Below are positions 23,988-41,987 of a stretch of 64,000 nucleotides of DNA, piece after piece. Every line of letters begins with the position of its first letter. The stretch's first letter is position 1. Source of the DNA: Candidatus Multivoradales bacterium (GTDB lineage: Bacteria; Acidobacteriota; Thermoanaerobaculia; Multivoradales; Multivoraceae). Both the position numbers and the translations under genes were made by a program. Below the pieces are notes generated by a model. The model worked only from the letters and a program-made list of their open reading frames with translations. It searched no databases and had not been told where the DNA came from. The stretch covers positions 3,904,001 through 3,968,000 of the forward strand of contig CBDCWI010000002.1 in assembly GCA_965223325.1 (NCBI GenBank), written 5' to 3'.

Positions 23988-25381
23988 CGGTTTTCGAAGG
24001 CCTGGTGCTGCTTGCGTTTGTCGCGCTGGTGTTGGCCGCAGGAAGGGTGGCCGCTGGAGCGGCGGTCTCGGTACGCCCGGCCTACGCACTGGCCGCCGGT
24101 TGGTTGGTCTTGCACACAGCGATGCTGCAGCTCGACTTTTTCGGTTTCAACTGGACCCGAAGCTCGCTCTTCTTCGCTACCGCTTTCCTGGCGCTGGGGT
24201 TGGCGATCGGCCGCCGGCGTGCCGAGGACCTTGTCCCGTCGTTGGCCACCGACCAGGAGTCTGTACCGGAAGACAGACAAAACCGTCGCCTGGGTCTCGG
24301 CGACCTGGTGGCGGCAGTTTCGGTTGTGGCGTTGTTCTGGGCCGCTCTGGCTCTCAAGGCGCCGCACTCCGACTTCGTCTATCACTGGGGGGTCAAAGCG
24401 CGCCATTTCGTCGAAGCGCAGCAGATCGATCGTGACTTGTTGAGTTACTCCTTGCCTGACCACATGCATCCGGACTACCCGCAGGGTCTGCCGGACCTCC
24501 TGGCTGCCGAAGCCTTCATGCAGGGGAGAGTCGCCGAGGGTGCCTGGCTGGCGATCTCGGCGTTTCTGTTGCTCGGCATCGTCCTGGCCGCTCGTCGGTG
24601 CCTGTGCAACGTGGGCGCAGACCGCACCGTCGTGCAGTGCGCTGTCGCAACCGTCGCAGCGAGCACCGCTGCCTTCTCGATTCAGTACTTCCAGGCCGGC
24701 GGACCGGACCTACCACTGGCCCTCGCTGTCACCCTTGGCATCGCCAGTATCGCCGAGACTGCTTTTCGCAGCGCGCCTGGAGAGACCCGAGGGGTACCGC
24801 TTTCGGCCGATGTGCGCCTTGGCCTGGCGGCGGCGCTGGCGGCCGCTCTCAAGGTCGAAGGAGTGGTGTTTTCGGGAGTCCTGCTCCTCTTGTGGTGGAT
24901 GGCGCCGTTCGGGCCTTTCCGAGGCGGGCGCAGCCTTGCCGAACGCAGTGTACGCCTGGGTGCGACGATCGGTCCATGGATGTTGGTGGTCACCCCCTGG
25001 CTGGCGATGACCGTCGCCCTCGATCTCTGGCCGGCGCGCGGCGGTCTGGCCGATCCCTCTCGGCTGAGCGAGGTCCTCGCCGTCGCCGTGCCGCAGTTCT
25101 TTGGCCGTGCCTGGATGGGGCTTGACCTGGTGTTGATCCTCGTGCCGGTATTTGTCGTGCGGCGCGCCACTCGCTGGATGGCGTTGCCGCTCCTTCTACA
25201 GGCGGCCTTCTATCTCTGGGTCTACCTGAGCACACCGCTCGACATCTCGCGCGTCGTGGCGACGACCTTCCCGCGCTTGTTGTTGCACCTCGTGCCAGCC
25301 GCCTGGCTGTTGGCCTTCATCGGGCTCGCTCAGGTCACGGCAACACGGCCGGGATCCGCAACGATTCCCGCTAGGGTCTAG
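23984..25381 (+). CDS. Polytopic membrane protein, possibly a GT-C-fold glycosyltransferase
   Basis: About 11-12 TM helices; DFVYHWGVKA, HPDYP, DLPLA and KVEG motifs. Confidence 0.6.
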   Translation: MTVFEGLVLLAFVALVLAAGRVAAGAAVSVRPAYALAAGWLVLHTAMLQLDFFGFNWTRSSLFFATAFLALGLAIGRRRAEDLVPSLATDQESVPEDRQNRRLGLGDLVAAVSVVALFWAALALKAPHSDFVYHWGVKARHFVEAQQIDRDLLSYSLPDHMHPDYPQGLPDLLAAEAFMQGRVAEGAWLAISAFLLLGIVLAARRCLCNVGADRTVVQCAVATVAASTAAFSIQYFQAGGPDLPLALAVTLGIASIAETAFRSAPGETRGVPLSADVRLGLAAALAAALKVEGVVFSGVLLLLWWMAPFGPFRGGRSLAERSVRLGATIGPWMLVVTPWLAMTVALDLWPARGGLADPSRLSEVLAVAVPQFFGRAWMGLDLVLILVPVFVVRRATRWMALPLLLQAAFYLWVYLSTPLDISRVVATTFPRLLLHLVPAAWLLAFIGLAQVTATRPGSATIPARV

Positions 25382-26429: not shown

Positions 26430-27062
26430 TCAGTCCGCGGGGCCGAGTTCTTCCGGCTGGAAGTAGCGGAAGAGGCCGGCCGCGATTGCCCCACCGAGCA
26501 GCGGGCCGATCCAGTACAGCGCCAGGTTGGCCAGACCGCCGGTTCCCTGAATCGTCTGCCAGAGCAGCGGGCCAGTTCCAACCGCCGGGTTGAAGGCGCC
26601 GCCCGAGATGCCGCCCGCGCAAATCGCGGCTGCGGTCACCGTCAGGCCGATTGCGAAGCCATAGATGTAGTTGCCCTTGAGTGCTTTGGTGGTCGCAGTG
26701 TTGAGAACCACCGAGGCGAGCACGAAAGTAAACAGCACCTCTGCGCCGAGCGCCTGGGCGAAGCCAACGCCTTCGCCGGGTGCCGGGCCGAAGATCGTAC
26801 CGGCGACGAACTGGACGGTGGCTGCGGCGGCGAGTGCACCAAGCACTTGCGCAACCCAGTACTGAACCATTTCGGCGGGTGTCATACGGCCGCGTGCCCA
26901 GACTGCCAGTGAGACGGCGGGGTTGTAGTGAGCTCCACTGACGTGGCCACCGACGTAGATCATCACCGCCAGGGTGAGACCGATGGCGAGCGGGTTGCCC
27001 GACAATCCGACAGCCAGCACGAGAAAGAACGTGCCGACGAATTCCATAACCAGGTTGCGCAT
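26430..27062 (-). CDS. MIP-family channel (aquaporin-like)
   Basis: EFVGTF, GHVSGAHYNPAVS, GGISGGAFNPAV; GAGGAG RBS before ATG 27062. Confidence 0.92.
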   Translation of the reverse strand: MRNLVMEFVGTFFLVLAVGLSGNPLAIGLTLAVMIYVGGHVSGAHYNPAVSLAVWARGRMTPAEMVQYWVAQVLGALAAAATVQFVAGTIFGPAPGEGVGFAQALGAEVLFTFVLASVVLNTATTKALKGNYIYGFAIGLTVTAAAICAGGISGGAFNPAVGTGPLLWQTIQGTGGLANLALYWIGPLLGGAIAAGLFRYFQPEELGPAD

Positions 27063-27352
27063 TCTCAACTCCTCGTTTTCGCCGCTTGCGCCATGCTGCC
27101 ACCGACAAGGACGTTGAGCAGGCGGAATTCCGCGCGCTCACGACCCAGGGTGGGAATGCCCGGCGGGCGGCGAGAGTTTCTTCAGTCGATCTGTGGGTGG
27201 GACGGACTGAACTCTCTCACAGGCCGCCGGTGGTTCCCAAGAACCCTCAAGATGCGTCGTGGTGAGCCGCCTCTCCCCGAGCGACCGACCACCGCTACAA
27301 TGTCCATCCACCCTTTCGAATTCACCCTCGGACCAACTCGGAAGCCCTCGCC

Positions 27353-28567
27353 ATGAAGACTCCTGATCTGCGCCGCGCGGCGCTCGCGCTTTCCCTGTTC
27401 GCACTCACTGCGCTCCTCAGTTTCCCGCTCTCCGCTCAGAAGAAGGTGCCGGTCGAGGGCGAGGTGCAGAACACGCAAGGCAAGGCGGTTGGCAAGGTCT
27501 CGTGGACCCTGGTGGCTGCGGACGGGACGGTAGCTGCCAGCGGTGCGGCCGACAAGAAGGGGCGCTTCAAAGCCACTGTGCTTCCTGGTTCCTACACCTC
27601 GCAGCTCGCACACCCGGACTACGCCACGACCGAGAAGACACTCGAGATCGGCGAGAACGGTTCGAAGTTGGGCCTCAAGATTCTCACCGGCCCCGAACTC
27701 GCCGGGAACACCTTCAACGATGGCGTCGGTCTTTTGCAGTCCGGTGAGCCCGACGCAGCGCTCGAGAAGTTTCTGAAAGCTCGCGAGCTCGATCCCACCC
27801 TGCCGCAGGCGCCGCTTGGAATCGCCCTGGTCAAGCACGGCAAGCAAGAGTGGGATCAAGCGGCGCAGGCGGTCGATAAGGTGATGGAGCTGGCACCGGG
27901 GCAACCGATGGTTCCTCCCGTAGTGCTCTATGACATCGCGCTCAATACGGATCGCCAGGATTGGCGCGACCAGGCCAAAGCACAGCTCGTCGGGACCCCA
28001 GCGGCAACCGACGCTGCCAAGGGGGTCTACAACAAAGGCGTCAGGGCGGCTAACGCGGAAGACGACGAGGCCGCGGTTGCGGCTTTCACGGAGGCCCTCG
28101 AGCTCGACCCGAAGCTGCCGGCCGCACACCAGTCACTGGCCGCCATCTACTTCAACAAGGGCGAGCACGCCAGAGCACTGCCGTTCATCGACAGCCTGCT
28201 GGCGGTCGCACCTACCAACGCGGCGGGTCAGCGCATGGCCTTCTTCAGTCACATGGAACTGGGCGATACCCAGAAGGCCGGCAAGGCCTTTGGCGTTTGG
28301 TCAGGTGAGGCTTCGAGTGCCGCCGGCGAGGTCCTCGAGCAGGCAGAGAACCTGTTCAAGGCGAACCAGCAAGACAAGGCGCTTTCCTATGCCGAGGCGA
28401 TGCTGATCGGAGCCCCCGACAACGCGCGAGCGCACTACCTCAAGGGCCGCGTACTGGCGGCCACGGGTCAGGTCGCTGCAGCCAAAAGCGCCTTGCAGAG
28501 ATTCCTCGACCTGGCGCCTGACGACGCGGAGGCTGCGGCAGCGCGCCAGATGATGGAAGGGCTGTAG
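27353..28567 (+). CDS. Secreted protein with carboxypeptidase-regulatory-like domain and TPRs
   Basis: Signal peptide, beta domain (VEGEVQN...PGSYT), TPRs ending FLDLAPDDAEAAAARQM. Confidence 0.8.
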   Translation: MKTPDLRRAALALSLFALTALLSFPLSAQKKVPVEGEVQNTQGKAVGKVSWTLVAADGTVAASGAADKKGRFKATVLPGSYTSQLAHPDYATTEKTLEIGENGSKLGLKILTGPELAGNTFNDGVGLLQSGEPDAALEKFLKARELDPTLPQAPLGIALVKHGKQEWDQAAQAVDKVMELAPGQPMVPPVVLYDIALNTDRQDWRDQAKAQLVGTPAATDAAKGVYNKGVRAANAEDDEAAVAAFTEALELDPKLPAAHQSLAAIYFNKGEHARALPFIDSLLAVAPTNAAGQRMAFFSHMELGDTQKAGKAFGVWSGEASSAAGEVLEQAENLFKANQQDKALSYAEAMLIGAPDNARAHYLKGRVLAATGQVAAAKSALQRFLDLAPDDAEAAAARQMMEGL

Positions 28568-28703
28568 ATGAGAGAGGGTAGGGCCGCTTCCGTTGCCGCG
28601 GCCCAGTCGGCCTATCTCCTGTGGAATGAAGCCTTTGCGCCTATTCAAATAGGCCCGCGTCGGTTAGGCTGGCGAATTCACCGGATTCTCTGGTTGGTTC
28701 GTC

Positions 28704-30059
28704 ATGAAGCGCACGGTTCACCAATTCGCAGCCTGGAAGAGGAGCGCAGTTTGCGCGCTCGTCCTGTCGTGGGCAGGTCTGGGTGCGCTCTCGTCGCAAG
28801 TGGTGTGGTCGAACCGGGTCGAGGTCGAAGGTGCCTTTCAGCCTGACGGTGAGGTCTATCAGAAGGGCGAAGTGGTCTGGGAGCCGCGCATCCAGGCGCC
28901 TCTCGGTCGCCATTGCTCGGCAACCTTCGAAGCACGACTGCGCGCCGACACCGAAGACATCATCGAGCCCGGGGTTCCAGACCAGCGAACCCGCTCGGCT
29001 GCCAACGAACGCTGGTTCATTGGCACGCAGATCGATAGTGCGGTACGCGAAGCCTGGGTTCGCTGTGCGAGCGGTGGCTTCCAGATCGACGTCGGCAAGC
29101 AGCAGACCGTCTGGGGCAAGGCCGATGGCCTCAAACTGCTCGACGTGGTCAACCCACAGTCATTCCGCGAGTTCATCCTCGACGACTTCGCGGACTCGCG
29201 CATTCCACTGTGGACGGTGTCGGCAAGCTACTCCTTCGGTCCCAGCAGTCTGCAGGTGCTGTGGATTCCCGACACGACCTACCATGAGCTACCCGCGAGT
29301 GGCTCCCCGTTCGCGTTCACTTCGCCGCTTCTCGCACCGAGGGTGTCGACCGCCGTTCCGGTTGAGCTCCTCGCCGTTTCCAAGCCGGGCGATGCCTTCG
29401 ACGACGCGGACTGGGGGGCGCGGTTTGCGACCTTCCTGGGTGGGTGGGATCTCTCGGCGGTGTACCTGCATCACTACGATGATCTACCAGTTTTCCGTCA
29501 ACAGGTGGTTGCTGATGGGCTGGGCTCACGGGTTGTCGTCGAGCCGACCTACGAACGGACCGATCTCTACGGCGGGAGTTTCAGCAACGCTTTCGGCAAG
29601 TTGACCGTACGCGGCGAGATCGGTCTGTCGGACGACAAGGCCTTTACCTCGAACGATCTCTTCCACGCCCGTTCTGACTCCTTCGGCCTGGTTCGTTCCG
29701 ATGAGCTCGGCTGGGTCCTCGGACTCGACTGGTACGGCATGCCTCAGTCGATGCTGAGTTTTCAGTACTTCGAGAGTCGCGTCGACGACGACCTGCCCCT
29801 CGATCGCGAAACCGTCGAGAGGAACGTCACCGGCTTCTACCGCTGGTGGAGCCGCAGTGAGAAGCTCGAGGCGCGCTTGATGTGGATGCACAATCTCGAG
29901 CGCAACGACGGTCTCGTACGGCCGGAGGTCCGCTATCAGTGGTTGGACATGACCCGGCTATGGATCGGCTATGACCACTTCTACGGAACGCGCCTCGGGC
30001 TGTTTGGCCAGTTTCGTGATCAGAGCCGCCTACGCATGGGCCTCGGCCTGCAATGGTGA
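28704..30059 (+). CDS. DUF1302-like outer-membrane beta-barrel
   Basis: Signal peptide; VREAWV, VGKQQTVWGKADGLKLLDVVNP, SRIPLW, GLFGQFRDQSR; C-terminal Trp. Confidence 0.8.
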   Translation: MKRTVHQFAAWKRSAVCALVLSWAGLGALSSQVVWSNRVEVEGAFQPDGEVYQKGEVVWEPRIQAPLGRHCSATFEARLRADTEDIIEPGVPDQRTRSAANERWFIGTQIDSAVREAWVRCASGGFQIDVGKQQTVWGKADGLKLLDVVNPQSFREFILDDFADSRIPLWTVSASYSFGPSSLQVLWIPDTTYHELPASGSPFAFTSPLLAPRVSTAVPVELLAVSKPGDAFDDADWGARFATFLGGWDLSAVYLHHYDDLPVFRQQVVADGLGSRVVVEPTYERTDLYGGSFSNAFGKLTVRGEIGLSDDKAFTSNDLFHARSDSFGLVRSDELGWVLGLDWYGMPQSMLSFQYFESRVDDDLPLDRETVERNVTGFYRWWSRSEKLEARLMWMHNLERNDGLVRPEVRYQWLDMTRLWIGYDHFYGTRLGLFGQFRDQSRLRMGLGLQW

Positions 30060-30068
30060 GCAAGGGCC

Positions 30069-33000
30069 TCAGGGTTGTTCCAACGCCTCCTGCTGGAACA
30101 TGCCGGTTGATAGATCCGTGTCATAGGCGACGTCGCTGAAACGGAAGGTCGTCGAACCGCCGGTCGCGTGATTGATGCACTCGAGACGGTGCACGGTGTC
30201 GATGCCGTCGACCTTCCTGATGTCGTGAGCGGTGATGGTGCGCTCGAGCGTCTGGCCGGTCCAGTACTCGACTCGTCGAGTGAGCCAGGTCTCACTGTCG
30301 ACCCAGCGCGTCGCCCGCTCGTGACCGAGCACCTTGGCCAACCGGCGACTCTTCACCAGGCCGTCAACGACAATGCACTGGCAGTCGTCGAGGGTCTGCC
30401 AGCCGACGGTCTGCCAGTTGTAGTCATCGAGCTCGACCTTCATCTCGTTCTTGATGTTCTCGTAGGTGAAGTCGGTGCCAAGGAAAGACTCGCCGCGGTT
30501 GGAAGCAGAGATGCGCCGGACGCGCCGGTACTCCGGCAGGTAGAGCCACTGGTCGTCGGCTTTACCGTCGCCGTAGTCCCAGGTGAGAAACGCAGTGCCC
30601 CGAACGGAAACCGGCTCGACGTAGCGGATGAGGCTCTGCTTGCGGTCGCCGTCGTAGCGTCGGAACACGGATGCCTTGCGGTGACGCTCGCGCCCGCGGG
30701 CGTCACGGACAGTGATCTCTAGAGATTCGCGCAGAGTCTCGCCATCCGAGCGCGCATTGACGAGCTGGGCGACGCGTAGGCCCTCGATCTTTGTTCCCGG
30801 TGCGAGGGCGGAGTCGGCTTCGGTGGAGGTGCCACGCGAGTGGCCGGTGCCGAGGGCGACAGAGAGCCCGAGCAACAAAACGACCAGCGTCGCCGGGGAG
30901 CCGACCCCGGCCTGGGCGCGCCGTCTCGCCTCGAGCTGGCGCGCAATCGCGGCGGGGGCGCTTTCGCTGCGTTCCTTCTCTGGCACATGTTCGTGGAGCT
31001 CGGCTTCGTGAAGCGGCCAGCCGACCAGCCGCAAAAGGCTCGGAAGCAGGAAGAGGTCAGCGGCAAGCGCGACGACCAGGGTTATCGCGGTTGCCAGACC
31101 CATATGGGCGATCGGTTGAAAGTCCGAGAACAAGAGCACCAGAAAGCCGAGTCCGAGGCAGACAGTGGTCACCAGGAGCGCCGGGCCAACGCGTTCGTAG
31201 ATCGCGGAAAGCGCCTGCCGTGGGTGATGGTTCCCCTTACCGCCGAGATGACCGAGGACGTGGGCGGTGTCGTCGACGGCCAGGCCCAGCGCCAGGCAAC
31301 CAGTGATACTGGTGACGAAAGACAGCGGAATTCCGGTCCAACCCATCAGCCCGAGGCAGGTTGCGATCGGGACGACGTTCGGAATCATCGAGAGTAGACC
31401 CAGTTTGAACGAGCGCAGGGAGGCCATCATCAGGAGTGTGATGAGAGCCACGGCTACGGCCAGGCCACGCAGCATGTTGCGCACGATCCCGTCCATTGCT
31501 TTGGGAAACAAGAGCCAGGTACCGAGGACTTCGACATCCAGGTTCGCCGGTCGGGTCGGGGTCTCGGCAGCAAAGCCGAGCAACCGCTGGCGCAGATCGA
31601 GCACTGCCTTCGACGAGCGGCTGTCGACCTTGAGGAAGACGTTGAGCGCTGAGCGGTCGAAGTTGACGTAGTACTCGAAGTCTTCTGGGCTGCCGCTACT
31701 CTCGTAGAGCACCATGTACTGCGCGGCGAGTGCCGGAGAGGTGAAGTAGCGTCGTTCGCTGTCGGGCTCGCCGGGCGGTTCGGGGTTCATCGCGTCGTCG
31801 ATGAGCGCCAAGTAGTCGAGCAGTGAGACTGAGCGGGTGACGATCGGATCCGCCATTGCGGTTTCGATGGCGCCGTGCGCGAAACGCAGCACCGACGGGG
31901 CGAGGGCTCCTTCGCCCTCCTCGGTCGACAGAACCAGGTTGACCCATAACGAACCGTCGAAGCGGTCGCTGAGGAACCCATCGCTCAGGCGATGAAAGCT
32001 GTCGGCCTTCCAGTAGGTGATCGGGTCACTCTCGAGCCGCAAGCGAAAAACCCCGCCGACCACGACCGCGACGAGGAGCAGGGTGACCAGGACCGCTCGC
32101 CAGGGTCGCTCGGCTCGTTCCACGCCGTACTGGGCGATCTGCGAGAGCAGTTGGATCCGGCGCGGGGGTGGAGGCTCGAAGCCGAAAACCTGAGCCAGTG
32201 CGGGCAGCAGGAGGAGGCTGGCAGCCAGAGCTCCGAGAATCCCGACGGCGAGGCCGGCGCCGAGGTGCTTGAGCACCTCGATAGGCATCAAGGTCAGGGA
32301 CAGGAACCCAGCGCTGGTCGACAGAGCCGAGATCGTGCAAGGTCTTGCCAACCGCGCGACCAGACGTGCACCGGGTGACAGGTCGAAAAACGGATCCTCT
32401 GCTCCTGCGCTTCGGAGGAGGGCGAAAGCGTAGAGACCGTAGGCGCCGGCGGTGGCGACCAGGATGGTCGGCAGAGTCGCAGACACAGCGGTAAACGGTG
32501 CGCCAACCAGAGACAGCCAGGCCGTTGCCAGAACATTGGACCAGGCTGCCAACACGCCCACAAAAAGCACGACGCCCCAGTGCCTGAGGATCGTGACCGC
32601 GAGGATGAGGACCAACACCAGGGCAGCCGATGTCAGGACTCCGAGGTCGCGCAGGCCGATGCGGGTACTGTCGACCTCGGCCGCCGGGTAGCCACCAACC
32701 CAGGTCGCCCAGGGCGCGCGCTCGAGAATGCGCGCGGTATCCGTGACCACTTCCTGGTTGATCGCACCGCTCGCCCGATCACCCTCCAGGGTGGGAACGA
32801 TGAACATCGAGACGGCGCGGCGATCGTCCGCAATGAGGTTGCCGTCGACGAGACGATGGCCGTCGATTCGCGCCAGCAGTCGCTCGAAGGAGGCCGCGAG
32901 TTCTTCCGGGGTGGCCGTGCCGGCAAGGAGCTCCTCTCCCACCAGACCCGAGGTGTCGAGAAAGCCCTGCTCGTCGGCGCGCACGTCCTCGACGGAAGTC

Positions 33001-33311
33001 AGATCGATGACATCAGAAACGCTGGGTAGAGATTCGATCTCGCGACGGAGGGAGGCCAGGAGCGCCAGGTCGCTGGCGGTCAAAGGTCGCCCGAGGTCGA
33101 TGCCGACCATCAGCATCTCGTCGTTCTTGAACTCGGCCTTGATCTCCTGGTTGCGGGCGCGGTCGGGATCGTTCTGGAGCAGAAAGTAGTCCAGTCCGGG
33201 ATGGATCTGGATCTTCGTTGCCGGCACGAGACCGATTACGAACGCCAGCCCGAAGAGCAAGATGATCAGGCGAGGGTACGTCTGAACCAACTTCTGCAGA
33301 ACACTGATCAT
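30069..33311 (-). CDS. MMPL/RND transporter fused to a LolA-like lipoprotein-sorting domain
   Basis: Two MMPL repeats (SMIPNVVP, GLAVDDTAH), an internal hydrophobic segment, then VRGTAFL..DDQWLYLPEYRRVRRIS..FLGTDFTYE. ATG 33311 is used because the longer ORF overlaps the kinase. Confidence 0.85.
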   Translation of the reverse strand: MISVLQKLVQTYPRLIILLFGLAFVIGLVPATKIQIHPGLDYFLLQNDPDRARNQEIKAEFKNDEMLMVGIDLGRPLTASDLALLASLRREIESLPSVSDVIDLTSVEDVRADEQGFLDTSGLVGEELLAGTATPEELAASFERLLARIDGHRLVDGNLIADDRRAVSMFIVPTLEGDRASGAINQEVVTDTARILERAPWATWVGGYPAAEVDSTRIGLRDLGVLTSAALVLVLILAVTILRHWGVVLFVGVLAAWSNVLATAWLSLVGAPFTAVSATLPTILVATAGAYGLYAFALLRSAGAEDPFFDLSPGARLVARLARPCTISALSTSAGFLSLTLMPIEVLKHLGAGLAVGILGALAASLLLLPALAQVFGFEPPPPRRIQLLSQIAQYGVERAERPWRAVLVTLLLVAVVVGGVFRLRLESDPITYWKADSFHRLSDGFLSDRFDGSLWVNLVLSTEEGEGALAPSVLRFAHGAIETAMADPIVTRSVSLLDYLALIDDAMNPEPPGEPDSERRYFTSPALAAQYMVLYESSGSPEDFEYYVNFDRSALNVFLKVDSRSSKAVLDLRQRLLGFAAETPTRPANLDVEVLGTWLLFPKAMDGIVRNMLRGLAVAVALITLLMMASLRSFKLGLLSMIPNVVPIATCLGLMGWTGIPLSFVTSITGCLALGLAVDDTAHVLGHLGGKGNHHPRQALSAIYERVGPALLVTTVCLGLGFLVLLFSDFQPIAHMGLATAITLVVALAADLFLLPSLLRLVGWPLHEAELHEHVPEKERSESAPAAIARQLEARRRAQAGVGSPATLVVLLLGLSVALGTGHSRGTSTEADSALAPGTKIEGLRVAQLVNARSDGETLRESLEITVRDARGRERHRKASVFRRYDGDRKQSLIRYVEPVSVRGTAFLTWDYGDGKADDQWLYLPEYRRVRRISASNRGESFLGTDFTYENIKNEMKVELDDYNWQTVGWQTLDDCQCIVVDGLVKSRRLAKVLGHERATRWVDSETWLTRRVEYWTGQTLERTITAHDIRKVDGIDTVHRLECINHATGGSTTFRFSDVAYDTDLSTGMFQQEALEQP

Positions 33312-33336
33312 GGGTGCGGTTACTCGGATGGATGGG

Positions 33337-36102
33337 TCAAGAAGCGGTGTCGTGCCGGAGGTTGTTTTGCAGCGCGGCCTCAACCGCCGCTTGGTCCATC
33401 TCGTGGTCGAGCGGAATCGTGATGCGAAAAGTCGCACCGCCCAGGCGGCCGTTGGCGATGGCCTCGATCGTACCGCCGTGGGCGCGGACGAGGTTGCGTA
33501 CGGTAGCGAGGCCGAGGCCGGTGCTTCGTTTCCCTGAGTGGAAGGGCTCGAAGATGCTCGGTAGCCGCGCGACGGGAATGCCGGGGCCGTTGTCTTGAAT
33601 CTCGACGAGCAGAGTGCGCCCCTCGTCAGCTCCGGCCTGGTCGATCTGCGCCTCGAGTCTGACGGTGCGGGGTTCGTCCTCACCGGCCAGGGCGTCGCGG
33701 GCGTTGTGGATCAGGTTCTCGATGACTCGCGCCAGCGCCACCGTGTCGAGGCTTCCCCTGGCGCTCGCATCGATGGCGATCTCGAGCTCGAGGTCAATGG
33801 AGCGACGCTCCAACTCACCGCGCAGACCCTCTGCGACGTCTCGTAGAAGCTCGGCTACGGTGGTCTGTTCACGCGCCAGCTGGGGCGTGCCTCCGCGGGC
33901 GAAGTTGAGCATCTCTTCGGTCATCCGACCGAGTCGATCGACGGCGGTGCCGATTTGTTTGAGTGGCTCTGCGACCGCGTTGCCGTCTCCGTTCTCGGCC
34001 GAGCGCTCGGCGAAGTGGCCGGCCAACTCAGCGTAGCCCTTGACCACGGTGAGCGCGTTGCGCAGGTCGTGGGCGATGGCGCTCGACATCTGGCCAATCG
34101 CCGCAAGGCGCGTGTCGCGTTCAGAGAGCTGCTCCTCAGCGGCCTTGCGGCGCAACAACGCACCAACGCGAGCGACGAGTTCGCGGGGAACGAAAGGCTT
34201 CACGAGGTAGTCGTCGGCGCCGTACTCCAAGCCCTCGACAATGGCACCGGCGCCGGCGCGCGCGGTCACCATGATGATCGGGATGGAGGCCAGGGCGGAA
34301 TCGGCGCGGATCTCCTTGCACAGCTGTTCGCCGTCCATGCGCGGCATCATGACGTCCGAAACCACCAGGTCGATTCGCGCGCTTTGCAGTGCCTCGAGGG
34401 CCTCGACGCCGTCGGCTGCTCGCACGACGCGATACTTCTCGAGCAGCGCTCGTGCCATGAAGTGCCGAAGGTCCTGGTTGTCGTCGACCACCAGCACGAT
34501 CGGCGCGTCCTCGGGTGGTTGGTAGTCGGGTTGGTCCTCACCGGGCGGGCGCAGGGTGGTCGGCGCAACATCCGCGAGAGCAGTGTCGCGCAGTGCGCGG
34601 CGATACTCCTGGGCGGCGAGCGCCGAGCGTCGGGCCTCAGCCATGCGATCCTGGCGACGGCGAGGCTGGCTGCGCCGATCTTCGACATGCTGCTGACGGG
34701 CCGGCAGGGTGGCGCGAAACGTCGAGCCCACTCCCACTTCGGAGTGCACCACGAGGTCGCCGCCATGCAGGCGTGCCAGTTCGCGCGCGAGCGCCAGACC
34801 AACGCCCGTTCCTTCGTGGGTGCGCGCGCTCGAACTGTCGACCTGATAGAAGCGATCGAAGACCTTTTCGAGTTCGCTCTCTGGGATTCCTGAGCCGGTG
34901 TCTTCGACCTCGAAAACGACCTTCTCGGGTTCTTCATTGCGCACGCGGACGGTGATGTGGCCCTTCTTTGTGAACTTGAGGGCGTTCGAAACCAGGTTCG
35001 CCGCAATGACCCAGATCTTGTCGACGTCGAGTTCGGCAGGTCGGAGCTTCTCTTGCTCGAAGCGCAGCTCGAGCCCCCGGGACTCCGCCAGGGGCCGCGC
35101 CGACTGAACCACCTCTCCAATCAGCTCGCCGACATCGACTCTCTCTGTGGCCAGGTCAAGCGATCCAGATTCGAGCTTCGCGATGTCGAGCAGGGCATTG
35201 ACCTGTCGTAGCAGGCGGGTGGCGTTGGTGCGCATCGAGGCCAACAGCTCGCTGTGCCCTGGGTCGCTGATCTGGCCGCGCAGGGTGTCGATAGGGCCGA
35301 GAAGAAGCGTAAGCGGTGTTCGCAGCTCGTGACTGACGTTGGCGAAGAAGCGTGTCTTGGCTTCGTCGAGCGCGAGCAGGTCCTGGTTGGCCTTCTCGAG
35401 TTGCAGGCGCAAGGAGAGGTCGCGCCACAAGGTCCTCCTGGCAGCGAATGTTCCGAGGGCGGTGAATGCCGCTGCGCAGACGAGAAAGAAGAAGTGCGCC
35501 ACCATCTCGCGCGAGGTCCCGGCGCTGGGAATGGTGAGCGCCAGGTGGAGAACCGCGGTGGCGGTTCCGAAGGCGAGCATCAAGAGCGGGTGAATGGGCA
35601 TGGAGAGCCCCAGCCCACCGATGACCAGCATGATGCCGACGAAGTAGGTGCTCTGCCAGCCGGCCATCAGTGCGCCGAGGAGTGAGATCACCGCTGCGCA
35701 GAGTAGGCCGTTGCCAATGACCAGCTTCTCGGCCCAGCGCGCGGCACCAGGGCGTCGCACGATCAACCAGGCCACCAGGCACGAAGCGGCGACCCCCAGT
35801 CTCAGGCCCAGGGCGAGATAGGCGAGACGGGGTTCGATGACCACATCCAGAAACCAGAACGCGGCGAAGAGAAAGGCCGTCGCGCCCAGCAGGCGTCGAC
35901 CCCGGTCGCGCAGCAACGCTTCGAGCTCGCGATCGAACTCGCGTGCCAGGGAAGGCTGGCTATCGCCCACGGGATGGGTTCCCGTCCAAGAAGTATCCAA
36001 AACCGGCGGTCGCCCCGTCTCGGTATGTGTTGGGCAATGGCAAGAGAAGAGCGAGTTGTTGAAAATACTAGAGTTGTGCCGTTCTCCCAAGCCCGACGAC
36101 AT
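33337..36102 (-). CDS. Membrane hybrid histidine kinase: TM sensor-HisKA-HATPase-REC-HisKA-HATPase
   Basis: H-box 1 NVSHELRTPL, NLVSNALKFT, DTGSGI, GTGVGL; REC VVDD/SDVMMP/KPF; H-box 2 IAHDLRNAL, NLIHNARDA, DNGPGI, TGLGL. The true start may be ~36000. Confidence 0.92.
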   Translation of the reverse strand: MSSGLGERHNSSIFNNSLFSCHCPTHTETGRPPVLDTSWTGTHPVGDSQPSLAREFDRELEALLRDRGRRLLGATAFLFAAFWFLDVVIEPRLAYLALGLRLGVAASCLVAWLIVRRPGAARWAEKLVIGNGLLCAAVISLLGALMAGWQSTYFVGIMLVIGGLGLSMPIHPLLMLAFGTATAVLHLALTIPSAGTSREMVAHFFFLVCAAAFTALGTFAARRTLWRDLSLRLQLEKANQDLLALDEAKTRFFANVSHELRTPLTLLLGPIDTLRGQISDPGHSELLASMRTNATRLLRQVNALLDIAKLESGSLDLATERVDVGELIGEVVQSARPLAESRGLELRFEQEKLRPAELDVDKIWVIAANLVSNALKFTKKGHITVRVRNEEPEKVVFEVEDTGSGIPESELEKVFDRFYQVDSSSARTHEGTGVGLALARELARLHGGDLVVHSEVGVGSTFRATLPARQQHVEDRRSQPRRRQDRMAEARRSALAAQEYRRALRDTALADVAPTTLRPPGEDQPDYQPPEDAPIVLVVDDNQDLRHFMARALLEKYRVVRAADGVEALEALQSARIDLVVSDVMMPRMDGEQLCKEIRADSALASIPIIMVTARAGAGAIVEGLEYGADDYLVKPFVPRELVARVGALLRRKAAEEQLSERDTRLAAIGQMSSAIAHDLRNALTVVKGYAELAGHFAERSAENGDGNAVAEPLKQIGTAVDRLGRMTEEMLNFARGGTPQLAREQTTVAELLRDVAEGLRGELERRSIDLELEIAIDASARGSLDTVALARVIENLIHNARDALAGEDEPRTVRLEAQIDQAGADEGRTLLVEIQDNGPGIPVARLPSIFEPFHSGKRSTGLGLATVRNLVRAHGGTIEAIANGRLGGATFRITIPLDHEMDQAAVEAALQNNLRHDTAS

Positions 36103-36128
36103 GATTTCTTGCGAAACAGCGAGGGAGC

Positions 36129-39100
36129 CTACGAAGGGGCGTCCCAGCTGCCTCCCCAGCTGCCGAGCTTGACCGCGCGCCCGATCACGGCTGTAGCGGG
36201 GCTTCCCAGTCCCTCGAACAGGTTGACCCGTGCAAAACCTGCTTCATGCAGGAGGTCACGAAGCTCCTCGCGCCCAAAGAAGCGGAATCGGCCGTCTTCT
36301 TCGAGCTCGATGAGCCTGCTCATCATGTTGGCAAAGCCCCGCAGCGCTTCGAGTTGGTGGGCTGCCTCAGGGTCGCCCTTCTCGACTCGCGCGCGCAGCA
36401 GCTCACTTTCCTCGCGGTACTGCTTTGACGGATCCCAGTTGGGCTGTAGGGATGACACCACCAAAACGCCGCCCGGCCGCAGGATGCGATGCATCTCGCG
36501 GATGGCAACCAGGGGGTCGGCGAGGTAGGAAACCACGAGCGAGCAGCCGATCCGGTCGAGGCTTTCGTCCGGGAAGTCGAGTGTCGCGCCAGGGCGAGCA
36601 TCGGCGAAGCTGAGATGCTCGAACTCGAGGTCGAGCGCGGTGGTCGCCTTCTCGCGACCGGGCCGAAGGTCCGTTGGGAGCACTTTACCGTGGCAGAACC
36701 TGGCCGCTCGGCCGATCTCCTCGATGACGTCCAGCTCGGTGCGCTCGAGATCGGGGCAGATCGTGCTGAGGCGCGCGCGGGTGAGGGGAGCGCCGCGCAG
36801 TGCTTTGTGCAGCGCCTTGCCGTAACACTCCTGAATCCGTGCTGCGGTCAGTGCTTCGAGCCCCCCGATGCGACCGGCGAGCTCTTCGACACCGTACGCT
36901 CTTCCCTCGAGGAAATCCTCGATCGGTCGCAGGCGACTGACCTCGAGGTCGGCGTTTACCTGGAGGCAGGGAAACTCACCGAGCTTGCGGGCGATCCTGG
37001 TCTCTTCGACCTTCGTTGCGGTGCGCTCGAGCGCTTCGGGCACCAGGTCCAGAATCGTGTACGAAGCCGGAGCCTGATCCTCAGTGAGAGTGCTCAAGAT
37101 GGCTCGCGACAGGTTGCCCGTTCCGCACCCGAAATCGGCGAGGTCTTCATCAGGTTGTGGATCCAGGAGTCCGACCTGGTGTTCCAGGAACTGTGGATAG
37201 TCGGGGTGCTCGAGCAACACGTCGTAGGCCAGGTCGTCGCCCCCGGAGCCGAACAGGTGCTGGTGCCAGAAGGTTCGGGCATCTCCGAGTCTGTACCGCT
37301 TGACGCGCGCCCATTCGGCGCGTGATTGCTCGCCGAACTTGCGCAGGTCCGGGTCGGTCGCCGGTCGATCTTCGCCGAAGATGTGTTTTGCCACCGACTC
37401 ACTGACCAGCTTGAAGACCTCGATCGCCTCGGGCCCCTCTTTCAAAACATGACCGGTGGCGCACTCGAAGACCTCGCGGATGCCGCTTCCCGGTGCCTCG
37501 AGCATCTGCTGGACGCGGCTGCGGGTGACCCAGTGGTCGTAGGTGCCGACGATCCAGGTGATCGGCGTGGTGATGGCTGCGATGTCCCGGCGCGCCTCGG
37601 CCAGGTAGGCCAGGTCGAGTTCCGCGGCCTTCGCGAACCAGTTGTCGACCAACACCGGGCGCCCATGGACGTGCATGCGTTCGGGTGCCTCCCCCTTTTC
37701 CCACAGCGGAAAGAGGTCGAGGCCCGCGAAGTAGTTGCGCATCATGTCCTGGGCATCGGGACAGCCGAAGGGTGCAACCCAGGCGTCGATTCGTGGCCCA
37801 GCGTCGTCCACCACCCGGCGCGCTGCGATCGCCGAGAAGGATACCGAGACCAGGGCACACTTCTGGGGGTTGAATCGCTGTTCGACGTAGCGCAGCGAAG
37901 CGTTGATGTCGTCGACCAGGTTTGACAGGTCCCACTCCAGGTAGGGCTGGTTCTGTTCAACCAACTTCGGGTTCATGGTGCTTTCACCGACGAGGTGACA
38001 GAGATCGAAACGAAGGACAACGACACGCCGACCTCCGCGTCCGAGGTCGTCGACCAGCGTTCGGGCCTGCAAGCCGAAGACCTCCTTGCGTTTCAACAGC
38101 GCGGGCGCAACGAGAACGGCGACATCGGGTCTGAGACTGGGGTCACTTGTATCGAAGTTGGCATCGATGAGACCGACGACGGACTCGCCGCGCCGATTGC
38201 GGTACTGCACGACTTCGACGCCGCTTTCGATCCGCGACCGTTGGCGCCCGAGAACTTGCGACACGCGGCTGCGCAGGAGGGCAAAGGTGCGCCGTAGGCG
38301 ATTACCCCGGGTGGACTCGAGCGAACGGCTGCTGCGGTCTTCGAAGACCGAAGGTTGACCGGGTTCATCGTCGAAGTGCAGTCCAACGCGCAGTGTCTGG
38401 TCGTCGTAGCGCGTCAAGTAGCGGATGGTCGCTCCGGAGACCGGTCGCTCGTAGCCGTTCTGGCTGACCATGAAGTGCGGCAGCCGCGTCCCGACCAGGA
38501 ACGGCGTGTTCAGAGGAACGCACATCGAGGCGCCGCCTTCGGCAAGGTCGAGGAGCTCGAAGCGCGTGAAGCCGCCGGTGAGGTGGGGAGCGCGGAACTC
38601 ACAGTAGCCCGCCGCCTCGCTCCGACGGTTGGTCCGGCGTTCGGTGACGTAGAGCCGTTGCGGTGCGAGCAACACGGGGCGTTGCCCAGGTACGAGCAGA
38701 ACGCCCTCGAAGGCGTAGAACAGGCTACCGTCTGAGAACACGATGTAGACGACACGGCTGGTCGTGTCCTCGACCAGCTCGACGCCGTCGAGGGTGAGGG
38801 TCGAGCGCGTCGGGTCGTCGTTGAGTGTCAAGCCAGCGAGTGTCGCCTCGTCGATCTGGAACCCGCGTTGAGCCAGGACGCTGATCGGGTAGCGGCCGGC
38901 AATGGCGGTCCGGAGGATCGCTTCGACTCCCTCTGGATCGGCAACCGGCAACAGGTTGCTGGGTAACAGGTCGCCTAGTCGTTGCTGCACGCGCACGATG
39001 GCGTCGTCCATCTCGAGAAAGCCGGCGTGACTTCGCAGGCGTGCACGGTCGCGCGCCGCGAGCTCTTCGAAGCGCACGCCGAAACCAGCCGGGCTGGTCC

Positions 39101-39389
39101 GCACCACACGTGCCGCGACCTCGATAGGTCGCGAGTCGGTGGGCAGGGTCAACCGCAAGGCGAGCCTTTCGCCCGGCTCGAGTTTCGTCGTTGTACGAAC
39201 GAAGGCTCCATCGGCACTCAGGTCGGAGGCGATTGCTGGTCCAGCCAGCTGCTCGCCCGAGTCGATGCGCACTGCGATATAGGTCGCCCGCCGAGGTGCA
39301 AGGCGGGCTTCCGACTCGCTGCTGCGAGCAGTCGGTGAAGGCATGGCGGTTTGTGGCCCGGGCTGCGAAGGCAGCCAGCTGGTCGTCAC
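36129..39389 (-). CDS. PilZ / YcgR-N-like / PilZ / LuxD-type thioesterase / SAM methyltransferase fusion
   Basis: PilZ1 RLAPR+DLSADG; PilZ2 RRTNRR+DLAEGG; LRFDLCHLVGES, VSVSFSA, GTYDHWV, TGHVL; DFGCGTGN, ILDL, HRILRPGG; GGAG RBS before the GTG. Confidence 0.8.
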   Translation of the reverse strand: MTTSWLPSQPGPQTAMPSPTARSSESEARLAPRRATYIAVRIDSGEQLAGPAIASDLSADGAFVRTTTKLEPGERLALRLTLPTDSRPIEVAARVVRTSPAGFGVRFEELAARDRARLRSHAGFLEMDDAIVRVQQRLGDLLPSNLLPVADPEGVEAILRTAIAGRYPISVLAQRGFQIDEATLAGLTLNDDPTRSTLTLDGVELVEDTTSRVVYIVFSDGSLFYAFEGVLLVPGQRPVLLAPQRLYVTERRTNRRSEAAGYCEFRAPHLTGGFTRFELLDLAEGGASMCVPLNTPFLVGTRLPHFMVSQNGYERPVSGATIRYLTRYDDQTLRVGLHFDDEPGQPSVFEDRSSRSLESTRGNRLRRTFALLRSRVSQVLGRQRSRIESGVEVVQYRNRRGESVVGLIDANFDTSDPSLRPDVAVLVAPALLKRKEVFGLQARTLVDDLGRGGRRVVVLRFDLCHLVGESTMNPKLVEQNQPYLEWDLSNLVDDINASLRYVEQRFNPQKCALVSVSFSAIAARRVVDDAGPRIDAWVAPFGCPDAQDMMRNYFAGLDLFPLWEKGEAPERMHVHGRPVLVDNWFAKAAELDLAYLAEARRDIAAITTPITWIVGTYDHWVTRSRVQQMLEAPGSGIREVFECATGHVLKEGPEAIEVFKLVSESVAKHIFGEDRPATDPDLRKFGEQSRAEWARVKRYRLGDARTFWHQHLFGSGGDDLAYDVLLEHPDYPQFLEHQVGLLDPQPDEDLADFGCGTGNLSRAILSTLTEDQAPASYTILDLVPEALERTATKVEETRIARKLGEFPCLQVNADLEVSRLRPIEDFLEGRAYGVEELAGRIGGLEALTAARIQECYGKALHKALRGAPLTRARLSTICPDLERTELDVIEEIGRAARFCHGKVLPTDLRPGREKATTALDLEFEHLSFADARPGATLDFPDESLDRIGCSLVVSYLADPLVAIREMHRILRPGGVLVVSSLQPNWDPSKQYREESELLRARVEKGDPEAAHQLEALRGFANMMSRLIELEEDGRFRFFGREELRDLLHEAGFARVNLFEGLGSPATAVIGRAVKLGSWGGSWDAPS

Positions 39390-39714
39390 GGCGGTGCTCC
39401 GGAGAAGTACCTCGTTTGCGAACTAGAACTTGCGACCAGGGGTGTGTACCTGGCGGGCCTGAGAAGGAGTGAACGTTGAGGAAAACGCGAATTATATGGG
39501 AGGCAGTCGCTCGTTGCTCTATGTCACGTTGTCTGTCGCTCTATGCTGAGCTGCGACTTCTCGTCCAGGCCTGGAATCGACCTTCGGGCGAGGAATCGAA
39601 GATGCGGGTTGTGCTATATTGGACCCTAGTTTTCCGAGTTTCTAGTACTCCTGAGAGTGCGCTGAACGAGCTGGAAAGCAACACCAAACCGCCGTGTTCG
39701 TAGCGGAGACCTGA

Positions 39715-40032
39715 ATGACGACCGAACCGCAAGAAGTGCTCGAGTCCAACATGCCCGAGAGTCTCGAAGTCGAGATCTACGGCGGGACGTACCGAGTACG
39801 TGGCGGTGACGCCGAGGAGCTCCGGGAGCTGGCGGGCTACGTAGACAAGAAAATGAAGGAGGTCGCGACACATCTCGCGACAGTCGATACGACGAAGATT
39901 GCGATCCTCGCCGCGCTGAATATTGCCGATGAACTGCGCAGCGGGAGTCGAGAGAGCCAGCCCGGGGTCGAGCGTCAGCTCGACCTGATGGCCGGTGCTT
40001 TAGAAGAGGCGCTCGGAGAATCGGTGGGCTAG
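39715..40032 (+). CDS. zapA: Cell division protein ZapA
   Basis: VEIYGGTY, LAGYVDKKMKEV, KIAILAALNIADEL; lies upstream of 6S RNA and rny. Confidence 0.9.
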   Translation: MTTEPQEVLESNMPESLEVEIYGGTYRVRGGDAEELRELAGYVDKKMKEVATHLATVDTTKIAILAALNIADELRSGSRESQPGVERQLDLMAGALEEALGESVG

Positions 40033-40109
40033 AGGGAACCGGGAGAATCGAGATCCCCTCAGGCTCCGAATGATGAGTGCGAGCGCCCAATACGAAGATC
40101 GAAGAATGT

Positions 40110-40299
40110 TGCACCCCCTGCGCGGTACGTGATGGCCCAACCACTGTTAGAACCTACGCTTCTTTTCCGGGAGTCCTATATCCACGTGGCCTGTGCCAGC
40201 CTCGCTCGTACGAGGACGCTGATGGCTCGAGGCGCGGACACCCACCTGGTCATGCCAGGTTCTAAGCCGGACGGGTCACACGGTCGGGCGGGGGGTGCC
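40110..40299 (+). ncRNA. ssrS: 6S RNA
   Basis: Canonical zapA-ssrS-rny position. Rod pairing GCACCCCCTGC(40111)/GCGGGGGGTGC(40288) and TTAGAACCT/AGGTTCTAA flanking a central bubble. Ends are approximate. Confidence 0.8.
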
Positions 40300-40421
40300 A
40301 CCCTTCGTTTCGCTGGCAGCGGTCGCCAACTTGCCGCGACCGCCGGGGGTGTGAACCCCTAAGGGAAGTCGGTTCTCTCGCCGAAGGTGTCGTGCCTCTT
40401 GCCATATAGGCGGAGGTACCA

Positions 40422-41987
40422 ATGGACACGAATGTTGTACTAGCTGCGCTGGCGCTAGTGGCCGCTGCGTCCATGCCTGTGGTTTGGCTCCTGTTCGTGC
40501 GACGTGCTGCACGGCAGATCACCATCCAGGCGCGCCGCAAGGCGACGCGGCTTCTCGAAGAGGCCGACCGCGAGCGCGACGCCAAGCGTCGCGAGGACGA
40601 GCTCGCGGCACGGGAAAGAACGCTGCAGCGCCGCGCTGAGTTCGAAGCGGAGGCTTCGAAACACCGCGCCGAACTCGATGAGCGGGCTCGCGAACTGGCC
40701 GACGAGCGCCGCGAGTACACGGAGCAGGCGGCGCAACTCGAGCGTCGACTCCTCGAACAGGAAGAAAGAGAACAGGCACTCGCTGCGACAGAGGCGAATG
40801 TCGAGGCCAGAGGGCAGCGTTACGCGAGGCTGTTGGAGGACGAACGCCACCGGCTCGAGCGCGTCGCCGGGCTGACCGCTCAGCAAGCGCGCGAAGAGCT
40901 CGTTCGCAGCCTCGAGGCCGAGGCACGCATCGAAGCCGCTCACCTGATCAAGAAGATCGAAGACGAAGCGCGTGAGCGCGCTCTTCCCGAAGCGCAACGG
41001 ATCATCTCGATGGCGATCGAGCGCTCGGCAGCGGACTACATCAATGAAACCACGGTTTCGGTGGTGATGTTGCCCAGCGACGACATGAAGGGTCGCATCA
41101 TCGGCCGTGAGGGACGCAACATCCGCGCGCTCGAAATGGCGACGGGCGTCGACTTGATCGTCGACGATACCCCCGAGGCCGTGATTGTTTCGGGCTTCGA
41201 TCCCTACCGGCGGGAGATCGCTCGCGTCAGCCTCGAGCGCTTGATCGCCGATGGGCGCATTCACCCTGCCCGGATCGAAGAGGTGACCGAGAAGACGCGC
41301 GCCGAATTCGAGCAACGAATTCAGAGTGACGGCCAGGAGGCGCTGCTCGAGCTCAACCTTTCGAATGTGCACGCTGAGTTGGTGAAGCTGCTGGGGCGGT
41401 TGCGCTATCGCACCAGCTACGGTCAGAACGTCTTGCAACACAGCAAGGAGGTCGCCTTTCTGGCGGCCAACATGGCGGGCGAGCTGCGTGCTGACGTGCA
41501 CGTTGCCAAACGTGCGGGCCTCTTCCATGACATTGGCAAGGCGGTTGATCGCGAGATGGAAGGCACCCACCTCGAGGTGGGGATCGACCTCTTGCGCAAG
41601 TACGGCGAAACGGAAGAAGTTGTGCACGCCATGGCGTGTCACCACGGTGACTACGATCCTGAGACCGTGGAGGCTGTCCTGGTGACTTCTGCCGATGCGC
41701 TGTCGGCCGCGCGCCCAGGCGCGCGGCGCGAGATTCTCGAGACCTATATGCGACGACTCGAGAAGCTCGAGGAGCTCGCCTCGAGTTTCGACGGTGTCAA
41801 CAAGAGCTACGCGATTCAGGCCGGTCGCGAGGTCCGCATCATCGTCGACTGCGACAAGCTGAGCGACGAGGAGGCCATTTGGCTGTCGAAGGATGTCGCC
41901 AAGAAGATCGAGAAGGAACTGACCTATCCCGGGCATATCAAGGTCACCGTGATTCGGGAGTCGCGAGCGGTTGACTATGCCCGCTGA
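40422..41987 (+). CDS. rny: Ribonuclease Y
   Basis: N-terminal TM, coiled coil, KH ([13 protein letters not shown]), HD (HSKEVA, HDIGK), [12 protein letters not shown]. Confidence 0.97.

Follow-up and report, generated by a model that had tools for sequence, protein, structure and literature searches.

A PilZ-linked hydrolase-methyltransferase fusion and its partner sensor kinase: a candidate lipid-signal circuit with a separable exporter

Introduction

The phcBSRQ operon of Ralstonia encodes the methyltransferase PhcB, the sensor kinase PhcS, and PhcR, in which a receiver is joined to a kinase domain (PMC8578825). In the rpfBFCG cluster of Xanthomonas, a fatty-acid signal is made by RpfF, which has thioesterase activity on acyl chains bound to the acyl carrier protein (ACP); RpfC is a membrane hybrid kinase, RpfG is a phosphodiesterase that joins a receiver (REC) to HD-GYP, and RpfB is an enzyme of the acyl-CoA-ligase type (PMC3749722, PMC13660987). 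We describe here a locus whose enzyme and kinase look like a new lipid-signal circuit resembling Phc and the diffusible signal factor (DSF) system encoded by rpf. It lies at positions 28704-39389 of a 64,000-nucleotide stretch of the genome of a Candidatus Multivoradales bacterium (Acidobacteriota; contig CBDCWI010000002.1), which is called the window throughout. The locus encodes a fusion of PilZ, LuxD-type hydrolase, and S-adenosylmethionine (SAM) methyltransferase domains, a hybrid kinase, and a transporter.

Fatty-acid methyl ester (FAME) pathways have been engineered in Escherichia coli from a thioesterase and a bacterial fatty-acid O-methyltransferase, with release from ACP followed by SAM-dependent methylation. 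These pathways use artificial pairs of separate enzymes and have neither regulatory domains nor a partner kinase. LuxD, a myristoyl-ACP thioesterase/acyltransferase encoded in the lux operon, has a single domain and supplies aldehyde synthesis. In the MapZ-CheR1 system of Pseudomonas aeruginosa, cyclic di-GMP (c-di-GMP) acts through a PilZ domain to control a SAM methyltransferase (10.1101/814665). MapZ is a separate single-domain protein acting in trans on a protein methyltransferase, whereas the PilZ domains described here are fused to the enzyme. For the transporter, the closest described system is AmeABCD of Castellaniella defragrans, a cluster with a resistance-nodulation-division (RND) pump of the HAE3 family together with DUF1302 and LolA-superfamily/DUF1329 proteins, which functions in monoterpene tolerance (PMC6394551). 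Genes for DUF1302, DUF1329, BNR, and RND proteins form co-fitness clusters (10.1101/072470), and fatty-ester phenotypes of such RND clusters are described in Pseudomonas putida (10.1101/2020.07.04.188060).

Results and Discussion

The fusion enzyme is encoded by an open reading frame (ORF) of 1086 codons at 36129-39389 on the reverse strand, with Pfam matches to PilZ and to methyltransferase families. The initial annotation had read it as a PilZ domain fused to a LuxD-like hydrolase and a SAM methyltransferase, and the conservation of c-di-GMP-binding motifs and of the catalytic triad supports that architecture, except that the N-terminal region contains two PilZ stretches rather than the single domain first proposed. 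PilZ domains that bind c-di-GMP carry the motifs RxxxR and [D/N]xSxxG. Domain 1 (residues 29-120; 39030-39305, reverse strand) has both, as R29 and R33 and as D56, S58, and G61, and the enzyme scores 69.2 bits with the PilZ model PF07238 (E 4e-19), for which the cutoff is 22.5. Motif conservation was counted in an alignment of 24 full-length relatives and in a separate alignment of 13 loci with 27-55% identity. Both binding motifs of domain 1 are kept in 13 of the 13 loci; among the 24 sequences, S58 is invariant and R29, R33, and G61 are at least 90% conserved. Binding of c-di-GMP by this domain is thus predicted from its motifs. Domain 2, at about residues 246-345 (38355-38654, reverse strand), is PilZ-like and retains RRxxxR, and in a distant branch of the family it also has a canonical DISxGG. 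When PDB chains were searched with the family profile, domain 2 matched YcgR weakly (E 0.12-0.14).

The PilZ domains are followed by an alpha/beta-hydrolase domain of the LuxD type (residues 385-690; 37320-38237, reverse strand), with a predicted triad of Ser517, Asp618, and His647. Ser517 lies within the elbow S-V-S-F-S-A, and all three residues are invariant in both alignments. An AlphaFold2 model of the domain has a predicted local distance difference test (pLDDT) score of 87.4. LuxD itself (1THT) takes the first two places among the PDB matches of this model (E 2.7e-17; template-modelling (TM) score 0.75-0.79), about four orders of magnitude ahead of the runner-up fold entry (E 5.8e-13). 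The sequence identity to 1THT is 14-15%, and the family-profile search of PDB chains left the hydrolase part unmatched, returning methyltransferases and the weak YcgR/PilZ matches only. The LuxD model PF02273 (Acyl_transf_2) matches eight of the 13 aligned family members (best E 7.6e-8). It also matches, above its cutoff, proteins of about 560-590 residues that consist of the LuxD and methyltransferase domains without PilZ (P0136, E 1e-21; P0139, E 7e-26). The model and these family matches support a LuxD-like hydrolase domain as a remote homolog and bear out the LuxD-like call of the initial annotation. Since hydrolase and methyltransferase also occur joined without PilZ, the two catalytic domains form a unit. 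In one genome the two parts are separate, adjoining genes.

The C-terminal domain is a class I SAM methyltransferase (residues 690-1080; 36150-37322, reverse strand) in which motif I reads DFGCGTG and which carries a helical insertion about 120 residues long. Five Pfam methyltransferase families match it above cutoff, and motif I (D-x-G-x-G-T-G) is conserved in 13 of the 13 aligned loci. The AlphaFold2 model of the domain has a pLDDT of 85.5. The relatives of this domain are mainly fragments with generic names, and no protein named PhcB is among them.

At three loci, an acyl-AMP ligase gene is inserted downstream of the fusion enzyme. An AMP-binding ligase stands between enzyme and kinase in L007 (9581-17276). 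In L054 (9045-18349), the same interval holds an AMP-binding ligase, an acyl carrier protein, and a B12 radical-SAM enzyme, and in L051 (2-6111) the AMP-binding and B12 radical-SAM insert of L054 is seen again up to the contig end. L054 is the only locus in which an ACP gene was confirmed. The inserted ligases score best against long-chain fatty-acid-CoA ligase models, below the curated cutoffs, and for the radical-SAM enzymes the top-scoring models are those of hopanoid and lipid radical-SAM families, also below cutoffs. These inserts support an ACP-bound acyl chain as the probable substrate. The L054 enzyme is itself split into a PilZ-hydrolase gene and a methyltransferase gene.

Two other functions for a methyltransferase joined to a hydrolase were weighed against these domain assignments. 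One is reversible methylation, of the CheR/CheB kind, of the kinase or another signalling protein, under PilZ control as in MapZ-CheR1. With a membrane sensor kinase next to them, a methyltransferase and a hydrolase of the esterase type do resemble an adaptation pair, and there is the precedent of MapZ-CheR for PilZ control of a methyltransferase (10.1101/814665). However, the hydrolase is of the LuxD type and not of the CheB type, no CheR family appears among the Pfam, NCBIfam, PDB-sequence, or fold matches of the methyltransferase, and acyl-AMP ligase genes lie between enzyme and kinase in the three loci just described, with ACP confirmed in one. We regard protein methylation as very improbable. 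The other is a reaction sequence like that of BioC and BioH, in which the methyltransferase would cap an ACP-bound dicarboxylate for elongation and the hydrolase would later cleave the ester, giving a dicarboxylic or modified acid. The ACP-linked neighbours at some loci would suit this scheme, and the BioC model TIGR02072 matches the enzyme with E 4e-10, far below its cutoff. That match, however, covers only about 50 residues of the SAM-binding core common to such enzymes; the nearest hydrolase fold is the thioesterase LuxD and not BioH, and the linked genes include none for biotin synthesis or fatty-acid elongation. We give this scheme an equally slight chance.

The second gene of the locus, at 33337-36102 on the reverse strand, encodes a hybrid kinase of 921 residues with two HisKA, two HATPase_c, and one Response_reg match in Pfam. 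Its layout is a membrane sensor, a HisKA-HATPase pair, a REC domain (residues 536-646), and a second HisKA-HATPase pair. The sensor, at about residues 60-225, consists of five to six hydrophobic transmembrane helices with invariant residues and no large loop; its only family match is a weak, sub-threshold one to MASE8 (E 0.033). We compared 18 enzyme-bearing loci, namely the window, L070 (from the same-genus genome G563), L001-L007, and L046-L054. In 15 of the 15 loci with enough downstream sequence, the enzyme is adjoined by a homolog of the window kinase, with an alignment that includes the membrane sensor; L005, L006, and L051, where the sequence ends too early, are left out of this count. 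The kinase gene follows the enzyme gene directly in 13 of the 15 and stands behind the inserted genes in the other two (L007 and L054). The first reading of the locus had placed the kinase with the fusion enzyme, and this pairing holds in every locus where it could be seen. On these gene arrangements, the enzyme and kinase are a pair conserved across several phyla, with a putative signalling or biosynthetic role. A complex prediction for enzyme residues 20-690 with two c-di-GMP molecules and the kinase receiver gave a score of 0.00, which counts neither for nor against an interaction.

What does the kinase act on? In 13 of the 16 assessable loci there is a REC-HD-GYP module, which is either part of the kinase itself or the product of a gene next to that of the enzyme. 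In the distant branch, the kinase is itself a sensor-HisKA-HATPase-REC-HD-GYP protein (nine loci, eight of them by Pfam HD_5 and L048 by similarity). L001, L002, L004, and L006, which belong to the window's branch, each have a REC-HD-GYP gene of its own immediately upstream of the enzyme gene, and the kinase, where the contig reaches it, has the same sensor-kinase-REC-kinase form as that of the window. Each of the six sequences checked has the HD and GYP motifs, and four of them also have HHE. The linkage of a REC-HD-GYP phosphodiesterase to a PilZ enzyme suggests a conserved logic, in which the kinase would direct c-di-GMP hydrolysis, c-di-GMP would be read by PilZ, and PilZ would control the enzyme. 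A link to c-di-GMP had been proposed from the window's PilZ domain; the phosphodiesterase genes, which could not be seen from the window, strengthen it.

These partners also bear on another reading, in which the enzyme makes no diffusible signal but remodels envelope lipids under c-di-GMP control, for instance by cleaving or transferring an acyl chain and methylating a lipid; the kinase would monitor the state of the membrane, and the pump, in this genus, would carry the lipid to the outer membrane. Pumps of the HAE3/MMPL type move envelope lipids, as in hopanoid transport by HpnN (cited in PMC6394551), and export of a cell-wall component was proposed by Price et al. (10.1101/072470). A periplasmic domain is absent from the kinase sensor, the nearest families to the B12 radical-SAM neighbours are those of lipids and hopanoids, although below cutoffs, and LuxD-family enzymes are acyltransferases. 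However, the partner conserved in 15 of 15 loci is a kinase, accompanied by the phosphodiesterase in 12 of them and also in L006, and not a set of lipid-synthesis genes; lipid-biosynthesis genes are also absent from the flanks of the window locus. Since the conserved partners are a kinase and a phosphodiesterase, a signalling circuit fits better, and we consider lipid remodelling doubtful.

The arrangement of the genes can be compared with the two signalling systems described in the Introduction; the likeness is one of the design of gene roles, and the Phc proteins were compared by description only. Phc and the present locus share an operon layout in which a sensor kinase and a receiver-plus-kinase module come after a SAM methyltransferase gene, and the domains of PhcS and PhcR, taken together, are those of the sensor-kinase-REC-kinase protein of the window. 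Acyl methyl esters are both the class of the Phc signal and the class of product proposed here. In contrast to Phc, the enzyme described here adds two PilZ domains and a LuxD-type hydrolase, and most relatives add an HD-GYP domain. The four roles of the Rpf/DSF system (ligase, synthase, hybrid kinase, and REC-HD-GYP protein) recur around the fusion enzyme family, with the hybrid kinase and linked REC-HD-GYP in 13 of the 16 related loci, although the window locus has no HD-GYP. The enzymes are different: RpfF is a crotonase without methyltransferase or PilZ domains, whereas the present enzyme combines an alpha/beta hydrolase with a methyltransferase, and no crotonase domain was found in it by Pfam or fold search. 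Furthermore, c-di-GMP acts on downstream effectors in the Rpf system, whereas here PilZ sits on the putative synthase. By analogy, the proposed loop would combine the logic of Phc, a methyl-ester signal, with that of Rpf/DSF, a fatty-acid signal with a hybrid kinase and HD-GYP. With LuxD, the enzyme shares the Ser-Asp-His triad, the best structural match, and the PF02273 matches of its relatives and of the PilZ-less two-domain proteins. The initial annotation had known of no description of the combination. A search of the full-text literature, with supplements outside its scope, agrees with that: it gave no description of the fusion or of its pairing with a kinase or HD-GYP, and neither did surveys of PilZ and of HD-GYP or a paper on c-di-GMP in Leptospira.

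The fusion enzyme belongs to a large family, whose size was counted in representatives at 50% identity. A word-indexed search found 135 proteins at E ≤ 0.001, most of them full length, with 39-56% identity; at least 75 full-length relatives in this identity range are among the 120 matches listed. With a threshold of E ≤ 0.001, an exhaustive profile search gave 8298 proteins; the number falls to 790 at 1e-10 and to 458 at 1e-30, and the best 150 profile matches are all at or below about 1e-107. By their source names, the relatives come from Acidobacteriota, Myxococcota, Thermodesulfobacteriota, Spirochaetota, Planctomycetota, and Nitrospirota, and the source names of the word-indexed matches include Thermoanaerobaculia, Myxococcales, Thermodesulfobacteriota, and Planctomycetota. 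A scan of contigs with the single protein found no relative, and an alignment-based scan did find relatives.

Two further observations concern individual members of the family. Many representatives in the P0244-P0294 group are about 815-845 residues long, and the profile matches them only from about residue 144 to 795. This suggests a shorter architecture, probably without the first PilZ domain and with a methyltransferase that has no insert. In L002 (10001-13060), the enzyme gene of a metagenome-assembled genome spans three frames, seen as three tblastn pieces, which points to frameshifts or assembly errors in the record.

The remaining two genes of the locus encode a transporter. The pump gene (30069-33311, reverse strand) encodes a protein of 1080 residues with Pfam matches to MMPL and LolA_like (E 1e-43). 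The MMPL part is joined to a periplasmic LolA-like/DUF1329-like domain through an extra transmembrane helix at about residues 802-820, and LolA_like (PF17131) is a better match to the periplasmic part than DUF1329. The top NCBIfam match of the pump is the HAE3 model TIGR00921 (E 5e-37, below cutoff). The DUF1302 gene (28704-30059, forward strand) encodes a putative outer-membrane protein of 451 residues with a signal-peptide-like N terminus (Pfam DUF1302, E 5e-18).

As in the Ame system, an HAE3-family pump, a LolA-superfamily periplasmic protein, and a DUF1302 protein are encoded together, and the same trio occurs in L070 and in L071 (genome G571). The window differs from Ame in that the pump and LolA-like protein are fused, the periplasmic part is LolA_like rather than DUF1329, and AmeC is absent; no BNR-type (AmeC, Ycf48-like) domain was found in the four genes or the scanned flanking genes. 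The transporter thus matches, as judged by its domains, a separable module of an already known kind, the Ame-type HAE3 exporter, which is linked to hydrophobic compounds such as monoterpenes and fatty esters.

The initial annotation had taken this transporter to be part of the system, and a stronger form of that view is that all four genes are one dedicated system with MMPL-LolA-DUF1302 as the obligatory exporter of a methyl-ester signal. The enzyme, kinase, and pump genes do lie on one strand only 25-26 nt apart. This close spacing of three co-oriented genes, noticed at the outset, was confirmed, with 26 nt from the enzyme stop to the kinase start and 25 nt from the kinase stop to the pump start; so was the convergence on the DUF1302 gene, whose stop is 9 nt from that of the pump gene. 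The sister species (L070) has ymdB and rny, followed in turn by the enzyme, kinase, MMPL, LolA-like, and DUF1302 genes, and these five system genes are co-directional with 50-55% identity to those of the window. However, the trio adjoins the enzyme in only two of the 18 loci, the window and L070, both of the same genus, and the flanks fetched for the other 16 gave no match to MMPL, LolA-like, or DUF1302. Checking the neighbours in relatives therefore gave a divided answer, since the kinase is kept (15/15) and the transporter is not (2/18). The pump set also occurs without the enzyme: MMPL/LolA-like matches are present in 20 of 31 relatives (G000 being counted among them), and in several of these the MMPL and LolA-like genes are separate neighbours; in G571 the MMPL, LolA-like, and DUF1302 genes are co-directional in a genome where the query used found neither enzyme nor kinase.

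Furthermore, the genes surrounding the locus are syntenic in L070 and the window too, and because the whole region is syntenic, the kept adjacency alone does not prove coupling. In G571, a methyltransferase directly precedes MMPL-LolA-DUF1302, and it may be that this type of pump is tied to methylated substrates; however, this methyltransferase has no tblastn similarity to the methyltransferase domain of the fusion enzyme. We therefore regard a dedicated four-gene system as unlikely. Since the sister species has the same order and the window and L070 enzymes are sisters in a quick tree (SH-aLRT support 98), the junction between the two modules is old within the genus.

The details of the transporter genes vary between these genomes. 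The pump and LolA-like parts are one frame in the window and two adjacent genes in L070 (8944-12155) and L071 (7649-10801), and separate MMPL and LolA-like genes are also found in several further relatives. The DUF1302 gene is inverted in the window; in L070 (12272-13564) and L071 (6124-7605) it shares the strand of the LolA-like gene and comes after it. The G571 methyltransferase is a class I protein of 339 residues (L071, 10808-11827, reverse strand) and is a single case, without a counterpart at other short MMPL loci, where the flanks are only about 1.5 kb.

The reading that we prefer is that the locus holds two modules, a PilZ-gated enzyme that releases and methylates an acyl chain, together with its kinase circuit, and a separable exporter. 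We consider the chances of this reading, which rests on domains, motifs, the predicted fold, gene linkage, and distribution, to be evenly balanced. In the proposed mechanism, the LuxD-type domain would most likely take an acyl chain off ACP through Ser517, Asp618, and His647, or it may transfer the chain. The SAM methyltransferase would then methylate the released product, in the simplest case converting a carboxylate to a methyl ester. The two N-terminal PilZ domains would put the activity of the enzyme under c-di-GMP. In most relatives, the phosphorelay of the kinase would end in the REC-HD-GYP phosphodiesterase, fused or encoded beside the enzyme, so that the kinase would set the c-di-GMP level read by the PilZ domains. 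The window lineage has the kinase-REC-kinase form and would have lost the linked HD-GYP gene, and the relay there must therefore end on an unlinked regulator. A sensor of five to six hydrophobic helices without a large loop suits a hydrophobic ligand, which makes sensing of the product by the kinase plausible; if the kinase does sense a hydrophobic product, a closed feedback loop is plausible as well. Export of the enzyme product by the pump is plausible in this genus, as a local addition.

A more specific form of this mechanism is an autoinducer loop, in which c-di-GMP would gate the synthesis of an acyl methyl-ester signal, the kinase would sense the signal and drive the HD-GYP phosphodiesterase, and the genus would have added a captured exporter. 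We put this forward only tentatively, as a possibility rather than a probability.

Several observations weigh against the two-module reading. The DxSxxG motif of PilZ domain 2 is degenerate in the window's branch (DLAEGG in the window). For the hydrolase, the window enzyme has no PF02273 match at E ≤ 5, and the match of Abhydrolase_6 to the full window protein (E 6e-5) is below cutoff. LuxD-family enzymes are acyltransferases, as the Pfam name states, and the acceptor of the acyl chain need therefore not be water. The fold matches of the methyltransferase by Foldseek are generic only (Coq5, LahSb, and CmoA, with TMq about 0.4), and such matches make O-, C-, and N-methylation indistinguishable. 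No linked HD-GYP was found in the window, L070, or L003. A REC-HD-GYP query of the window genome found only two HD-GYP proteins, both with HAMP and not REC, together with many unrelated receivers, so that a c-di-GMP loop is not demonstrable in that genome. The distribution of the enzyme is patchy: it occurs in one of 201 sampled genomes of the window's class, the one being the window's own genome, and in ten of 401 genomes of the phylum, where the other nine enzymes have 25-31% identity. Finally, nine terminator-like sites were found in the region against 8.2 expected, which is the chance level and so carries no information.

Horizontal transfer was considered for the count of one in 201 genomes and was set aside, with the locus of the sister species being syntenic and the two enzymes being sisters.

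All four large ORFs of 28704-39389 have a high third-position G + C content. The fusion enzyme starts at a GTG at 39389, with an alternative ATG at 39344. The frame of the pump is open up to 33683, and the ATG at 33311 is the one that lies 25 nt past the kinase stop. The genes that flank the four-gene region are housekeeping genes. One flank carries thrS, pheST, and genes for a pyridoxal phosphate (PLP) enzyme, an aquaporin, and a TPR protein; the opposite flank carries zapA, 6S RNA, rny, and ymdB. The interval from pheT to the PLP enzyme gene also holds genes for a methyltransferase-domain protein of 442 residues (22168-23496, forward strand) and a protein of 465 residues (23984-25381, forward strand) that has no Pfam match; the sister species keeps them at 41% and 34% identity, respectively. 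The 6S RNA gene (RF00013, 80.8 bits, a full-length match to the model) is at 40112-40298 on the forward strand, between zapA (39715-40032, forward strand) and rny. It is 723 nt upstream of the start of the fusion enzyme, on the opposite strand. It was the sole match in an Rfam scan of 27000-41000, which showed no riboswitch, and a promoter and terminator scan of the region gave no promoter-like sites.

Conclusions

The tight adjacency of the transporter may be specific to this lineage and is not to be taken as a component of the system. What would the enzyme and kinase mean for c-di-GMP signalling? The PilZ-gated enzymes known so far are mainly polysaccharide synthases. If the proposed mechanism is true, a PilZ-gated enzyme that releases and methylates acyl chains would be a new class of output for c-di-GMP. 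The family has hundreds of representatives at 50% identity, and one biochemical characterisation would therefore annotate many genes. The constant pairing with the kinase, together with the HD-GYP domain in most relatives, suggests a self-contained loop that joins lipid-type cell signalling and c-di-GMP. If this is true, a single closed feedback loop would unite quorum-type signalling with c-di-GMP.

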